NCBI GenBank assembly: GCA_018263355.1
Contig: JAANXH010000054.1
Span: forward strand, 2,779-66,778
DNA length: 64,000 nucleotides
DNA from: Candidatus Woesearchaeota archaeon
Lineage (GTDB): Archaea; Nanobdellota; Nanobdellia; Woesearchaeales; JAGVZT01
Reading direction: 5' to 3'
In this document: in pieces, positions 4,494 through 61,649 of the stretch
Numbering within the stretch: the stretch's first letter is position 1
How the letters are laid out: every line of letters starts with the position of its first letter
Notes under the pieces: generated by a model
The model's input: only the letters and a program-made list of their open reading frames with translations
The model's database searches: none
What the model was told of the DNA's origin: nothing
Position numbers and translations under genes: made by a program

Positions 4494-4612
4494 AAAAAGT
4501 GGCACAGAGGCGTTAATACCCTACATCATGTCACTAACGTTCCTGACCTTAAGCATAGCTTAAGGCTTTGGTGTAGGGATTAGCCTCTGTTTTTGACCGC
4601 CACTTTTTCGGA
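4494..4612. repeat. structured repeat family B, copy 1 (nested inverted repeats AAAAAGTGG..CAGAGGC..core..GCCTCTG..CCACTTTTT)
   Basis: near-identical core catcatgtcactaacgttcctgacNttaagcatagcttaaggcttt shared with 33850-34007; compensatory pair ccctaca/tgtaggg vs ccccaca/tgtgggg. Confidence 0.6.
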
Positions 4613-4639: not shown

Positions 4640-4690
4640 GGAAATCAAAGATTTCCTTGAATTGAAAATCCCGCAAAGCGTGATTTTCAA
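4640..4690. repeat. hairpin module X (ggaaatcaaagatttcc + gaaaatc..gattttc) adjacent to family B
   Basis: reverse complement of 33783-33839; same ggaaatc-N-gatttcc hairpin recurs at 6150, 12470, 12592, 12850. Confidence 0.4.
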
Positions 4691-12407: not shown

Positions 12408-12688
12408 TTACTCAGAATGCGTTGGGTCTAAATCCCCTGGCTGTCGGGAAGCATAGCTTCCTGAGCATGATCAGAAATCATAGATTTCTGACATTTAGCC
12501 CGTAGCATTATGAGTCTGAAAATCTGCTTATCAAAGTGAAGAGCGTAAAAGCTCCCACCTCTCAGAAATTTTAAATTTCTGATGATGGTTGCCAGAGCAA
12601 CCTATGAATGTTAATGAATATGATCAGAAAACTTTGTTTTCCGACATTTAGGTGGGAGATAAGATCTGAACAGCAGATTTTCTTTATA
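12408..12688. repeat. structured repeat family A, copy 1 (expanded by internal insertions)
   Basis: shares ttactcagaatgcgttgggtctaaa..gagtctgaaaatctgcttatcaaagtgaagagcgtaaaagc..ctgaacagcagattttcttta with 23741-23927 and 28964-29104; stem ctcccacct/aggtgggag covaries with cccccacct/aggtggggg. Confidence 0.7.
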
Positions 12689-19564: not shown

Positions 19565-20761
19565 TTAACAAACATCTTTCTTAACTATATCTCCTGGCAG
19601 AGTTGATTTGTTAGGCCAGATCTTTCTTCCTGGATAAATCATTGTATTAATTCCAGTATTTACATTATCACCAATACATGCGCCCAACTTGCGCCTGCCA
19701 GAATCAACCTTTTTACCATTAATAATTGTCATGTTGTTTTTACCATCATGTCTATAATCAGCAGTAACTGTTCCATAGGCAATATTGACATTTTCTCCAA
19801 CAACAGAATGACCAAGATACGATTCGTGTTTTGCAGTAACATTATCCATCAAAACAGCATCAATTATTTCAGCTCGTGTTCGTACATTATCCATAATAAT
19901 AGTATCTTTCCTCAAATAAGCATTAGGTCCAATCTCACAATTCTTTCCAATAAAAACAGGACCTTCAATATAAGTTCCAGATTTAATAACAGAACCTTCA
20001 CCTAAAACTAAAACTCCCTTAACAGTAACATTCTTTTCAATATCTCCTTTAATATCTCTTTTTAATTGATTTAGCATAAAAACATTAGCTTCAAGATAAT
20101 TCCACCAATAAGCAATCGGTAACCAATAATGAGCCTCAACCACCTTAACTTTATCTAATAAAGTTACAGCATCAGTCAATTCATACTCTCCTCTTTCTGA
20201 TTTATCAAGTTTTTCAATAACTTTGAAAATTTCTTTATCCAGTATAAAACATCCAATATTTGCAAGATCAGAAACAAATTCTTTTGGTTTTTCAACAATC
20301 TTTTTAAGATAATCTTCTTGTTCAAGCAATAATACTCCGAATTTTGAAGGATTATCTGTTTTCTTTGCAAGCATACCATAATCATGTTCCAATAATTTCT
20401 CAATATCAAGTTTAGAATAAAGATCATCTCCGTTTAGCAATAGAAATTTATTGTCAATAAATTCCTGTGCTGCCAACAGTGCATGAGCAGTACCTCTCTG
20501 CTGTTTTTGTTCAGCATACTTTAATTTAATACCTTTATAGTCTTCTCCAAGATAATCAATTATCTGCTCTTTTTTGTAACCAACAACAATAATAACTTCT
20601 TCAACAATACCTGCAAGCTGATCAAGACTGTGTTCAATTAAAGTCTTATCTAGGATTTTTAATAAAGGTTTTGGGGTTGTAATTGTAATAGGATAAGTTC
20701 TTGTTGACTTTCCAGCTGCTAAGATAACTGCCTGCATTTTAACCAATCTCTTTTTTAACAA
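19565..20761 (-). CDS. glmU: bifunctional sugar-1-phosphate nucleotidyltransferase/acetyltransferase, GlmU-like
   Basis: N-terminal MQAVILAAGKSTR nucleotidyltransferase signature, C-terminal hexapeptide (left-handed beta-helix) repeats; overlaps glmM. Confidence 0.75.
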   Translation of the reverse strand: MLKKRLVKMQAVILAAGKSTRTYPITITTPKPLLKILDKTLIEHSLDQLAGIVEEVIIVVGYKKEQIIDYLGEDYKGIKLKYAEQKQQRGTAHALLAAQEFIDNKFLLLNGDDLYSKLDIEKLLEHDYGMLAKKTDNPSKFGVLLLEQEDYLKKIVEKPKEFVSDLANIGCFILDKEIFKVIEKLDKSERGEYELTDAVTLLDKVKVVEAHYWLPIAYWWNYLEANVFMLNQLKRDIKGDIEKNVTVKGVLVLGEGSVIKSGTYIEGPVFIGKNCEIGPNAYLRKDTIIMDNVRTRAEIIDAVLMDNVTAKHESYLGHSVVGENVNIAYGTVTADYRHDGKNNMTIINGKKVDSGRRKLGACIGDNVNTGINTMIYPGRKIWPNKSTLPGDIVKKDVC

Positions 20762-22146: not shown

Positions 22147-24078
22147 TTACTTCACGGTAACTGATTTTGCTAAGTTTCTGGGTTTGTCAGGATCTTTACC
22201 TAATTTTTTTGCTAGGTAATAAGCAAGCAATTGCATTGGTACAACATTTGCAATAGGTGAAGCATACCCACAGTCAGGAACCTTAATCCATTGATCAAAA
22301 ACTTCATTATCTTTTGGACTTACACCAATAATATGACCTCCTCTTGCTTTAACCTCTGCCGCGCTACTTAAAACAGCCATTTTATGTTCATCCTCTCCCA
22401 CAATAGCAATGCAAGGAGTAGCCTCTTCAATCAATGCAATTACACCATGCTTGAGTTCACCGCATGCAAAACCTTCTGCATGAATATAACTAATTTCTTT
22501 TATTTTCAAAGCTGATTCTAAAGCAATAGGATAATTAACACCCTTGCCAATAACATAAATGTGTTTCTTATTTTTTAGCTGATCTGCAATACGTTCAACA
22601 TTATTTAAAAAATCCTTATTAAGTAATTCTTTAATATTCTCTGCAGTATTTAGGATTAATTTTTTGCCCATTTCTTGCTTTCCTGCTAAAGTATAAGCCA
22701 GCATCAATAAAATTGCAATCTGTGAGGTAAATGCTTTTGTTGAAACAACAGAAATTTCTGGACCAGCATTCATTAGAATAGGATAATCTGAAATTCTGGT
22801 CAAACTTGAACCCATTACATTAACAATACTGGCTACTTTGGAATTATGTTTTTTTGCAGTCTCAACAGCATCTAGTGTGTCAGCAGTCTCACCACTTTGG
22901 CTAACTGCTATAACCAAGCTTTTGTCAGTAAGAAAATGTTGGTGATCAGAAAACTCGGAGCCTACTAAAAAATTAATATGTTTTTTGGCAATCTTAGAAA
23001 AATAATATGTGCCAAGTAATGCAGCATAACTTGCAGTACCGCATCCAATCAAAAAACTTCCATAAGCCTTATCAATAACTTTAGCCAGTTTTTTAACTTT
23101 TATACTATCCTGGACTGCAGAATCTTCTATAGTATCTGGTTGCTGCATTATTTCTTTGATTGTGTAGTTCTCGTAATCTCCCTTCTGTGCCTGCTCAACA
23201 TCCCAGTTAACAATTTCAATATCTTTCCTAATCTCCTTTCCAGTATTATCAAAAAACTCAATATTATTATTGATTTCTACACCTTCATCATTATCCAAAA
23301 AAACAATTTTGTTTGTATGCTCAATAAATGCAGGAATATCTGAAGCAATAAAATGACCCTTATCAGAAACACCAACAACAATTGGTGCACCCTTTCTAAT
23401 AGCAAACAATTTTTCACTAGGTTTATGAAATAACACAATTGCATTTCTTCCTTGAATAATATTACCAAGTTTGATTAAAGCGTTTCTTACCCCTAAAGAG
23501 CTATGCTCTTCAAGAAAATGAGCAATCACTTCTGTATCAGTATCAGATATAAATTTATGTTCTGAAAGTGTTTTTTTAATTTCCTGATAATTTTCAATAA
23601 TCCCATTGTGCACAACAATCATATCTTGGTTACAATCAGTTTGTGGATGAGCATTGTTCATAGTAACAGACCCATGTGTGGCCCATCTTGTGTGCCCTAA
23701 TGCAATATTACTTTTATCAAGTTTAACATCTGGATTAAAATTACTCAAAATGTCCAAGGGTCTAAAGCCCCGCCCTTTAGGGCGAGGACTTTTGAGTCTG
23801 AAAATCTGCGTGTCGAAGTGAAGAGCGTAAAAGCCCCCACCTTCAGGTGGGGGAATCAGTTGCCAGAGCAACTCAGAAACGAAGCAAAGCGAAGTGAGAT
23901 TAGCTCTGAACAGCAGATTCTCTTTACCTATCTTCCCTACTTTCTTGATTAGCTGCAGATCATTATCAAAAGTTGCAATTCCCCAAGAATCATAACCCCT
24001 GTACTCTAATCTTTTCAAACCTTCAATAACAATATCTGTTGCATTACCTTTTCCTTTATATGCTATTATACCACACAT
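22147..24078 (-). CDS. glmS: glutamine--fructose-6-phosphate aminotransferase (GlmS) carrying an about 62-aa in-frame insertion from repeat family A
   Basis: MCGI N-terminal nucleophile, HTRWATHG, two SIS domains, C-terminal KSVTV; insertion between GKIGKENL and LGHTRWATHG. Confidence 0.85.
   Translation of the reverse strand: MCGIIAYKGKGNATDIVIEGLKRLEYRGYDSWGIATFDNDLQLIKKVGKIGKENLLFRANLTSLCFVSELLWQLIPPPEGGGFYALHFDTQIFRLKSPRPKGRGFRPLDILSNFNPDVKLDKSNIALGHTRWATHGSVTMNNAHPQTDCNQDMIVVHNGIIENYQEIKKTLSEHKFISDTDTEVIAHFLEEHSSLGVRNALIKLGNIIQGRNAIVLFHKPSEKLFAIRKGAPIVVGVSDKGHFIASDIPAFIEHTNKIVFLDNDEGVEINNNIEFFDNTGKEIRKDIEIVNWDVEQAQKGDYENYTIKEIMQQPDTIEDSAVQDSIKVKKLAKVIDKAYGSFLIGCGTASYAALLGTYYFSKIAKKHINFLVGSEFSDHQHFLTDKSLVIAVSQSGETADTLDAVETAKKHNSKVASIVNVMGSSLTRISDYPILMNAGPEISVVSTKAFTSQIAILLMLAYTLAGKQEMGKKLILNTAENIKELLNKDFLNNVERIADQLKNKKHIYVIGKGVNYPIALESALKIKEISYIHAEGFACGELKHGVIALIEEATPCIAIVGEDEHKMAVLSSAAEVKARGGHIIGVSPKDNEVFDQWIKVPDCGYASPIANVVPMQLLAYYLAKKLGKDPDKPRNLAKSVTVK
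23741..23927. repeat. structured repeat family A, copy 2, inside glmS coding sequence (reverse orientation to gene, no stop codons in gene frame)
   Basis: ttactcaaaatgtccaagggtctaaagcccc..gagtctgaaaatctgc..gtgaagagcgtaaaagcccccaccttcaggtggggg..ctgaacagcagattctctttac. Confidence 0.7.
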
Positions 24079-28832: not shown

Positions 28833-28952
28833 TTTCAACTACTATGTGTTAGCATAATGCATGATTTAAGTGAAGGAGACAATCAGTTAAAAGTCAGGTT
28901 TTAACTCTTGCTTTAGCAAGTATGAAACGAGTAGTTTCTTTAGAGAACTTTG
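28833..28952. repeat. partial or rearranged copy of repeat family E in gatDE leader
   Basis: tcaactactatgtgttagc..tgatttaagtgaaggagacaa and tttagagaactttg match the two ends of the E element. Confidence 0.4.
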
Positions 28953-28963
28953 AAATACCCATT

Positions 28964-29104
28964 TTACTCAGAATGCGTTGGGTCTAAAGCCCCGGGCTTT
29001 AGCCCGCAGCATTATGAGTCTGAAAATCTGCTTATCAAAGTGAAGAGCGTAAAAGCCCCCTCCTTTAGGTGGGGGATCAGCTCTGAACAGCAGATTTTCT
29101 TTAC
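28964..29104. repeat. structured repeat family A, copy 3 (compact form)
   Basis: ttactcagaatgcgttgggtctaaagccccgggctttagccc..gagtctgaaaatctgcttatcaaagtgaagagcgtaaaagccccctcctttaggtggggg..ctgaacagcagattttctttac. Confidence 0.7.
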
Positions 29105-33555: not shown

Positions 33556-33782
33556 ACTCTTTTATTTAAACTATTTACTTAAAAACTTTTCTATTAAGAT
33601 TCAGGCAGTGATACAATCTAGATTAATGAAGCGAGATCTACTTTTCGTTATTTGAAAATTTTACAGGTTTAATATGTCTGAAAAATGTTGTTTTTCTGAT
33701 CATCTCAGAAATCTTCAATTTCTAAGACCTCACATAATATCACTTAGGTTCCTAACTTTCAGCGTAGCTGAAAGCTTCAGTG

Positions 33783-33839
33783 TGAAATTTTCAATTCAAG
33801 GAAATCTTTGATTTCCTGAAAAGAAAATGTTTCACATTT
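33783..33839. repeat. hairpin module X, inverted copy, adjacent to family B copy 2
   Basis: gattttcaattcaaggaaatctttgatttcctg is reverse complement of 4640-4672. Confidence 0.4.
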
Positions 33840-33849
33840 TCAAGTTCCG

Positions 33850-34007
33850 AAAAAGTGGTAGTCAAAGCAGAGGCGACAATACCCCACATCATGTCACTAA
33901 CGTTCCTGACATTAAGCATAGCTTAAGGCTTTATTGTGGGGATTGGTTGGAAAGCGAAGCTTTACAACTCACTGAACACAGTGACCGTGAGCCTCTGCAC
34001 CACTTTT
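33850..34007. repeat. structured repeat family B, copy 2
   Basis: same core and nested stems as 4494-4612, with compensatory substitutions. Confidence 0.6.
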
Positions 34008-34015
34008 TAGTTATT

Positions 34016-41078: not shown

Positions 41079-41097
41079 ATTTTCTACCTCCAAAATT

Positions 41098-41267
41098 TGG
41101 CCAGTGCTACAAATGGACTGATAGTGGTCAAAATTCGTCTGTGCCGTGGATGACATGAAATGACTTTTTTGTTATTCATGGCGGGGCCAGACGTAGTTTT
41201 TCTGCAGGAAAAACAGAGTAGGATTTTGAACCATATTAGTCACTCTGATACACTGCCAAAATTTGTA
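41098..41267 (-). promoter_or_regulatory. repeat family D copy 1: about 170-nt structured leader element immediately 5' of the HMA-DsbD_2 gene
   Basis: about 90% identical to 61399-61556 with compensatory changes (gccgtgg/tcatggc vs gccatgg/tcgtggc; GGCAGTG/CACTGGCC vs GGCGGTG/CACTGCC). Confidence 0.55.
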
Positions 41268-61371: not shown

Positions 61372-61398
61372 ATACTCACCCCATTTAATTCTTAGTTT

Positions 61399-61556
61399 GG
61401 CAGTGTTACAAATAGACTGATGGTGGTCAAAATTCGTCTGTGCCATGGATGACATGAAATAACCTTTTTGTTATTCGTGGCAGGGCCAGACGTAGTTTTT
61501 CTGCAGGAAAAACAGAGTAGGATTTTGAACAATATCAGTCACTCTGATACACCGCC
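61399..61556 (-). promoter_or_regulatory. repeat family D copy 2: structured leader element 5' of mscL
   Basis: see 41098-41267; GGTGAG Shine-Dalgarno-like 5 nt upstream of ATG at 61371. Confidence 0.55.
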
Positions 61557-61649
61557 TTAACTTGACATTGCCTGTCTTATGTATCACTACAAAATGCTAA
61601 AATTTATATATCAGTGTATCTTTTTGTAAACTACAAAAAAGAGGTTATA

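Follow-up and report, generated by a model that had tools for sequence, protein, structure and literature searches.

A structured mobile element, probably of PATE type, within the reading frame of glmS in a Woesearchaeota archaeon

Genes and element copies at the locus

The window analysed here (the whole stretch of 64,000 nt, or 64 kb, of contig JAANXH010000054.1 from a Candidatus Woesearchaeota archaeon) is AT-rich, with ~ 32% G + C, and carries on its minus strand a glmS gene that opens a glmS-glmM-glmU run. The glmM gene and a glmU-like gene follow downstream, and the run is intact. The encoded GlmS protein is identical to that of a Woesearchaeota metagenome-assembled genome (MAG) at NCBI (86-kb contig) and contains GATase and SIS Pfam domains. 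Inside this gene lies one of three copies of a structured element, and the G + C content of the three loci amounts to 41–49%. The gene, the copies and the substructures of the glmS copy are as follows.

22147–24078, minus strand: glmS open reading frame (ORF), 643 aa, first gene of the glmS-glmM-glmU run, carrying copy 2
12408–12411: TTAC to the left of copy 1
12412–12687, plus strand: copy 1, 276 nt, in the intergenic region upstream of a gene for a DRG-type GTPase, ending in TTAT
23741–23744, plus strand: TTAC to the left of copy 2, presumed host target oligonucleotide, repeated at the element 3' end (23924–23927)
23745–23927, plus strand: copy 2, 183 nt, inside glmS, 61 codons, stop-free in the glmS frame
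23743–23797, plus strand: domain 1 of copy 2, outer stem ACTCAAAATGTCC/GGACTTTTGAGT, from the computed fold, consensus structure and motif scan
23764–23767 and 23768–23787, plus strand: interior of domain 1 of copy 2, AAAG followed by the palindrome CCCCGCCC-TTTA-GGGCGAGG
23800–23922, plus strand: domain 2 of copy 2, outer stem GAAAATCTGC/GCAGATTCTC, internal loop and stem GUGAAGAGC/GCUCUGAAC
23830–23833 and 23834–23853, plus strand: interior of domain 2 of copy 2, AAAG followed by the palindrome CCCCCACC-TTCA-GGTGGGGG, then the GTTGCCAGAGCAAC mini-hairpin
28964–28967: TTAC to the left of copy 3
28968–29104, plus strand: copy 3, the minimal form, 137 nt, between divergent gatD and zinc-ribbon genes, ending in TTAC

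All three copies share one orientation. The 5' flanking TTAC is identical in each of them, while the copies end in TTAT, TTAC and TTAC, respectively. Because TTAC stands on both sides of copy 2, its boundary is uncertain by up to 4 nt (from 23741–23923 to 23745–23927).

Conservation and predicted structure of the element

Within the window, exactly three occurrences were counted for conserved 17- to 21-mers of the element, all of them on the plus strand, vs 0–0.34 expected. The copies align over a core of 137–141 nt with a mean column identity of 93%, and the nucleotide similarity among the three loci thus survives proper alignment. A covariance model was built from the common core (141 positions) and scanned against the whole window. 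The three copies obtain 174, 130 and 120 bits (E from 1e-37 to 1e-25), and no fourth copy is detected in the 64 kb, only reverse-strand echoes of the known ones. The predicted fold of every copy consists of two neighbouring hairpin domains and is more stable than that of shuffled sequences (z between -4.7 and -6.9). The existence of three structured copies, as claimed in the original prediction, is therefore borne out by k-mers, core identity, covariance scores and folds, with the right edge of copy 1 placed at 12687.

The same two-domain architecture is returned by RNAalifold, with four pairs altered on both sides and yet still paired. In each domain, an outer stem of 10–12 bp surrounds AAAG and, behind it, a GC palindrome whose loop is TTTA or TTCA. 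The GC stem reported earlier as covarying is real, CTCCCACC/GGTGGGAG in copy 1 being replaced by CCCCCACC/GGTGGGGG in copy 2, and further compensatory changes were found: GGGC/GCCC alternates with GCCC/GGGC in the stem of the first hairpin, and the outer stem of domain 1 is re-paired in copy 2 through changes on both sides. Two other structural statements hold in part. The pairing gaaaatctgc..gcagattttc, described as terminal, is present but closes the second hairpin domain only, and the glmS copy reads gcagattCtc; the ends of the element pair inside their own hairpin domains and not with one another. The hairpin GTTGCCAGAGCAAC, described as shared, is common to copies 1 and 2 but does not occur in copy 3.

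In copy 1, inserted hairpin modules at 12443–12494 and 12567–12650, comprised of TGATCAGAAA...TTTCTGACATTTAG (repeated), interrupt both palindromes. Mini-hairpins of the form GGAAATC...GATTTCC, resembling those that split the copy 1 palindromes, are also located near 4640 and 33800.

The in-frame insert in GlmS

Copy 2 adds exactly 183 nt to glmS, that is 61 codons (and not ~ 62, as estimated originally), with no stops in the glmS frame, as had been noted. The insertion falls between the codons of Gly51 and Asn, and the inserted residues are 52–112. At the host junction the protein reads VGKIG|NFNPDVKLDKSNIALGHTRW, and deletion of the insert restores VGKIG|NFNPDVKL in a protein of 582 aa, with a sequence pattern and length like those of orthologues. 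The insert had been placed between GKIGKENL and LGHTRWATHG, but the residues KENL, formerly assigned to the host protein, are encoded by the element. The junction peptide of the insert-deleted GlmS is VGKIGNFNPDVK, the peptides that span the two insert junctions of the 643-aa protein are VGKIGKENLLFR and RPLDILSNFNPDVK, and removal of the insert from the glmS mRNA would join GGGAAGATAGGTAA|TTTTAATCC.

Comparison with homologues shows that the segment is specific to this lineage. The best 120 of 8000 GlmS homologues are 579–613 aa long, vs 643 aa here, and in alignments of 14 and 72 sequences drawn from them (query included) the inserted segment is found in 0 of 13 and 0 of 71 homologues. The closest homologues among these 120 are only 63–71% identical to the query, and therefore a near relative for comparison is lacking. 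A phmmer search against solved structures matched E. coli GlmS, with the match broken at the insert (query residues 1–57 and 126–642).

The ORF survives the insertion because the length of the insert is a multiple of three and the frame read through the element is free of stops. Copy 3, the minimal form, is also open in this frame; its 137 nt would cause a frameshift, and three stops interrupt the frame in copy 1. The 61 residues are largely hydrophobic or basic and precede the conserved glutamine-site loop HTRWATHG by 17 residues. An AlphaFold2 model of the 643-aa protein, built with the 72-sequence alignment, has a mean pLDDT of 88.5 and a pTM of 0.85. Values of pLDDT drop below 50 at residues 58–72 and 81–116, in an excursion between strands 41–47 and 125–131, while the rest of the protein exceeds 90. 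The model thus sets the insert as a disordered loop between these two strands, and it is compatible with a 61-residue disordered surface loop in the glutaminase domain that the enzyme tolerates.

Junctions and an empty site in independent assemblies

Independent assemblies of the same population are available as Logan contigs (runs SRR10589498-508). Contigs from seven runs (L020–L026), which carry glmM, begin 30 nt inside the left end of copy 2 with bases specific to this copy, and continue into glmS. Six contigs carry the Na/Ca-exchanger gene located upstream, and in the two whose ends were read (L034 and L035) the sequence stops 38 nt inside the right end, after the glmS start. A synonymous single-nucleotide polymorphism (SNP) is present in L034. 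Both glmS junctions are real, being seen in independent assemblies, and an assembly artefact is ruled out. The insert is present in every population assembly examined, and no empty glmS allele was found among the best 120 of 8000 GlmS homologues.

A different situation was observed for copy 1. One contig (L033) carries an empty allele, GTATAAGATATA-TTAT-AAAATAAAATGGG, in which the flanks are joined and 276 nt are absent; three more SNPs are located nearby. It reads GATATA-TTAT-AAAATAAA, vs GATATA-TTAC-(element)-TTAT-AAAATAAA in the window. The filled allele is represented by another contig (L037), and one more (L038) breaks exactly at the junction. Because the empty site is precise, the family was gained or lost at this position between co-existing strains. 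The element family is therefore mobile or recently mobile, having moved, or been excised, within the divergence of these strains.

In contigs L020–L024, SNPs are densely clustered in the glmU-like gene (19778–19808 and 20069–20093) and absent from glmS at 22147–23770. This pattern indicates co-existing strains or recombination patches. In the vicinity of copy 3, three independent contigs (L030–L032) all stop 40 nt before the element (~ 28924) and not inside it, and a reverse-strand covariance hit of 40 bits at 28920–29021 overlaps this copy. The contig ends and the reverse hit hint at an inverted partial repeat or at a second polymorphism adjoining copy 3.

Probable relationship to IS200/IS605-type elements and PATEs

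With lengths of 137, 183 and 276 nt, the copies are too short for a transposase and are non-coding. Terminal inverted repeats are absent at any choice of boundary, since the left end (TTA)CTCAGAATGC does not match the reverse complement of the right end, AGAAAATCTGC. A classical miniature inverted-repeat transposable element (MITE) of the DDE kind was rejected for lack of terminal inverted repeats, the TTA direct repeat alone being ambiguous. An IS110-type bridge RNA was rejected as well, as the three target sites share only TTA.

The combination of AAAG and a directly adjoining strict GC palindrome occurs three times in the window, vs 0.08 expected, always on the plus strand and always in elements: in both modules of copy 2 and in the second one of copy 3. 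In the first module of copy 3 the palindrome begins 3 nt past AAAG, and in copy 1 both palindromes are broken up by extra DNA. The two near-terminal palindromes of copy 2, AAAG-CCCCGCCC-TTTA-GGGCGAGG and AAAG-CCCCCACC-TTCA-GGTGGGGG, are alike. A blastn search with the minimal copy 3 as query covered 72,556 plasmids and 50,697 phage records, and its matches were confined to the palindrome (24–30 nt, with individual E values of 0.03–6). Four of the five matches inspected are at the ends of tnpA/tnpB elements of the IS200/IS605 family:

Paraclostridium: palindrome match just upstream of a TnpB gene
phage phiCD211: palindrome match upstream of two transposase genes
Bacillus carboniphilus: palindrome match upstream of tnpA plus tnpB
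Thermobispora: palindrome match just downstream of a transposase

The gene-bearing strand of all five bacterial examples shows a C-run, TTTAG and a G-run, in the same polarity as the plus strand here. The left end of the Bacillus IS605-family element is TTAC-N16-AAAG-CCCACTCCTTTAGGTGTGGG, and right ends have the form GAAT-palindrome-N5/6-TCAA. These ends match the published layout of IS608, in which TTAC lies 19 nt 5' of the left palindrome, the guide AAAG is at the foot of the palindrome and TCAA lies 10 nt 3' of the right one (PMC3201880). The left module of our element, TTAC-N18-AAAG-palindrome, fits the same layout, with AAAG at the palindrome foot and a spacing of 22 nt instead of 19.

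PATEs are palindrome-associated transposable elements, derived from IS200/IS605 insertion sequences and lacking a transposase. In Haloquadratum, they are defined operationally by the absence of terminal inverted repeats, near-terminal palindromes related to IS605-type ends, a length too short to code and strain-specific insertions (PMC3119063). The element shows all of these features: like PATEs and IS608-type ends, it lacks terminal inverted repeats and has near-terminal GC palindromes similar at both ends (PMC3119063; PMC3201880), and its strain-specific insertion is accompanied here by a precise empty site. Interruption of PATE palindromes by inserted small repeats in Haloquadratum (PMC3119063) is mirrored by copy 1. 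The element differs from these systems in that each palindrome is enclosed in a conserved outer stem of 10–12 bp, and in its host, a MAG of Woesearchaeota (DPANN).

Several observations weigh against the glmS insert being a PATE-type element that the enzyme tolerates. The right end is unlike that of IS608: the terminal TTTAC lies 29 nt past the palindrome in copy 3 and 75 nt past it in copy 2, not ~ 10 nt, the right palindrome bears the AAAG of left-end type, and the TTAC at this end likewise recalls a left end. The empty site of copy 1 keeps TTAT, the right-hand tetranucleotide of the filled allele, so that the rule of insertion 3' of TTAC fits copy 1 only with a TTA|C boundary or a SNP. A TTA|C boundary would mean that the target is ATTA or TTTA and that the element ends in TTTA. 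Bracketing by TTA is also compatible with a 3-bp TTA duplication by another class of transposase. The ORFs of the 64-kb window include no apparent tnpA or tnpB, and the palindrome matches in other genomes are short and individually weak. Scans of genome, metagenome and viral contigs with the exact 19-mer AAGTGAAGAGCGTAAAAGC gave either chance matches lacking the other conserved blocks or no matches. A HMMER search of 1.84 billion representatives with the plus-frame translation returned three weak matches (one repeat-domain protein and two CRISPR-like translated arrays), judged to be unrelated. No relative of the whole element was found in these two kinds of search, and the family is thus not traceable to an autonomous parent. 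Finally, an open ORF after insertion of the 183-nt variant had a chance of about one in three, because the same frame is already open in the minimal copy, and it is therefore weak proof of selection.

Taken together, the element is very probably a non-autonomous mobile element. Its assignment as PATE-like, using IS200/IS605 chemistry, is narrowly favoured.

Fate of the insert and alternative explanations

The glmS mRNA is most likely translated straight through the insert. For bacteria, in-frame fusions arising from intragenic MITEs have been called "not unusual" (PMC10969869), and the glmS copy resembles Rickettsia palindromic elements (RPEs) in being a structured repeat (~ 150 nt in RPEs) placed in frame in a housekeeping gene and yielding a peptide segment compatible with the fold (PMC10969869). 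It differs from RPEs by the lack of any sequence relationship, by the archaeal host and by a likely different transposition chemistry; RPE insertions are often intragenic, vs one of three copies here. The suggested parallel with RPE insertion is well founded as regards the in-frame position and the absence from aligned orthologues, while translation itself is what we infer from the open frame. The other suggestion of the original prediction, an RNA-level intron, found no support. Under that explanation, the element would be taken out of the glmS transcript like an intron, or processed or bypassed on it in some other way, and a normal 582-aa GlmS would be made. If the mechanism involved neither a bulge-helix-bulge (BHB) motif nor a ribozyme, the element would represent a new small intron-like mobile element in DPANN archaea. 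We regard this explanation, also in the latter form, as highly improbable. Some features speak for it: on the mRNA strand the element forms two separate and very stable hairpins (-71 kcal/mol), a structure that draws its ends together, and the window appears to hold intron-bearing tRNA genes, so that a splicing endonuclease is probably present. Archaeal BHB introns occur in protein-coding genes, e.g. cbf5 of Crenarchaeota, and the glmS copy resembles them as a short structured insertion in an archaeal housekeeping ORF. However, the ends of the element are paired neither with each other nor with the exons, and a BHB scan of the mRNA strand revealed no motif linking sites near 23927 (5') and 23745 (3'). 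In a relaxed targeted scan, the best candidates had at most 3 of 4 central pairs, were AU-rich chance pairings and would compete with the stable hairpins. A BHB intron is thus ruled out by both scans of the glmS junctions, and the element differs from such introns also in being intergenic elsewhere, with an empty site at the DNA level. Searches of Rfam returned nothing at gathering score in any part of the window, and neither an intron nor a ribozyme family was matched on either strand; copies 2 and 3, searched also at E up to 10, returned only noise, including a HEARO match of 12 bits vs a gathering score of 83. IStrons, bacterial IS605-type elements fused to self-splicing introns (PMC4227781), can likewise reside in protein-coding genes without destroying them. 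They differ in being > 1 kb long, in carrying a group I ribozyme and in splicing out from a sense orientation, whereas 137–183 nt, the length of copies 3 and 2, cannot accommodate a group I or II core and the IS-type top strand of the element is antisense to glmS (PMC4227781). The missing BHB and Rfam matches, the small size and the antisense orientation leave splicing unsupported, and an in-frame length and stop-free frame would be needless if the insert were spliced. Another explanation is that the insertion inactivated or crippled glmS, the ORF being open by luck and the organism, as a DPANN-type symbiont, obtaining amino sugars from its host or through another gene. The chance frame of the minimal element agrees with this, and so do the character of the insert, its closeness to the HTRWATHG loop and its lack of confident structure in the AlphaFold model. 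We nevertheless consider it unlikely: the 96 columns invariant across the 72 aligned GlmS sequences are all intact, although the query, being included, has the conserved residue by construction; the glmS-glmM-glmU run is preserved; the remainder of the protein is modelled with high confidence; and the insert occurs throughout the population assemblies, with no empty allele among homologues.

Two further explanations concern the nature of the element. It could be a miniature transposon of another class, DDE or other, which duplicates 3 bp of TTA, with the palindromes resembling those of IS200/IS605 by convergence. TTA indeed flanks each of the three copies on both sides and stands only once, as TTA(T), at the empty site, the spacing at the right end departs from IS608 geometry and no Y1 transposase is seen among the ORFs of the window. 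Against this, besides the missing terminal inverted repeats, the same trinucleotide at 3/3 sites looks like target specificity rather than duplication of random targets, the combination of AAAG and palindrome corresponds to IS200/IS605 ends in the same strand polarity, and the copies share one orientation; we therefore hold this to be quite doubtful. Alternatively, the copies could be mainly genes for small RNAs, either a trans-acting TnpB omega RNA or a K-turn RNA bound by L7Ae, with the glmS copy as a side effect. The motif GUGAAGA...CUGA in domain 2 resembles C/D-box K-turn signatures, which we presume, speculatively, to count in its favour. Compensatory changes maintain the outer stems and not just the palindromes, and omega RNAs for use in trans are reportedly often encoded by PATEs (PMC10055086). 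Domain 2 ends at the right boundary of the element, the place where the scaffold of such an RNA would pass into a guide derived from the flank. Stems functioning in single-stranded DNA would nevertheless be conserved equally, copy 1 is heavily interrupted, no TnpB is encoded in the window and no Rfam family was matched, which makes an RNA gene as the main identity of the copies improbable.

Proposed course of events and significance

We propose that a PATE-type element was inserted in frame in glmS and is tolerated as a translated loop, an explanation we consider reasonably probable. According to it, and by analogy with IS608, a Y1 (HUH) TnpA encoded elsewhere in the genome would bind the palindromes as plus-strand single-stranded DNA. 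The element would be excised as a circle and joined to the DNA beside TTA or TTAC, a short T/A-rich oligonucleotide, inverted repeats not being involved. In this way the 183-nt variant may have entered TTAC on the non-coding strand of glmS, and the persistence of this copy would be explained by a variant that leaves the frame intact and a loop compatible with function. We infer the type of transposase and the retained activity of the enzyme, as well as translation, from the features described above.

Events of this kind are known in bacteria and are rarely documented in archaea. Mobile elements of DPANN archaea are almost undescribed, and the family offers a concrete, active-looking PATE-type case in Woesearchaeota, with one filled/empty polymorphism plus one copy fixed in the gene of a housekeeping enzyme. 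If the insert is translated, it would be an archaeal counterpart of RPEs and a natural test of loop tolerance in the glutaminase domain of GlmS. It is also conceivable, as a speculation, that domain 2 with its flank acts as a trans-acting guide RNA for TnpB, with homing keeping the insertion fixed in an essential gene; if the right-hand module guides a TnpB encoded elsewhere, this would be RNA-guided retention of an insertion in such a gene. Concerning annotation, the 643-aa "GlmS" merits a flag for a transposon-derived insert.

Other repeats and tRNA-like sequences in the window

In addition to the element, two other repeat families were noticed. One is represented at 41097–41265 and 61396–61564 by copies that are 91% identical over ~ 170 nt, with the minus strand as the probable functional one. 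They are located directly upstream of minus-strand starts, those of a gene for a Cys/Gly-rich protein (~ 41082) and of an MscL-like gene (~ 61372). The sequence folds at z = -4.1 and has no Rfam match; a shared 5' leader or a cis-regulatory RNA is possible.

A third structured family is found at 4497–4610 and 33850–34010, with a diverged copy at 33714–33790. Its stems are AAAAAGTGG...CCACTTTTT and CAGAGGC...GCCTCTG, and it has an internal hairpin AAGCATAGCTT. The extra DNA inside copy 1 of the glmS-associated element includes a hairpin, GAAGCATAGCTTC, similar to this internal one.

ARAGORN and Rfam reported no tRNA anywhere in the 64 kb. The segment 18290–18740 (minus strand) is GC-rich, has no convincing ORF and contains the tRNA-like pieces GGACCCGTAGCCTAGCCTGGTGA ... 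GGGTTCGAATC and GCGGGAGTGGCCAAGTCCGGTTTAAGGC ... GAGGGTTCAAAT, with extra sequence between them. These pieces are probably intron-containing or otherwise atypical tRNA genes.

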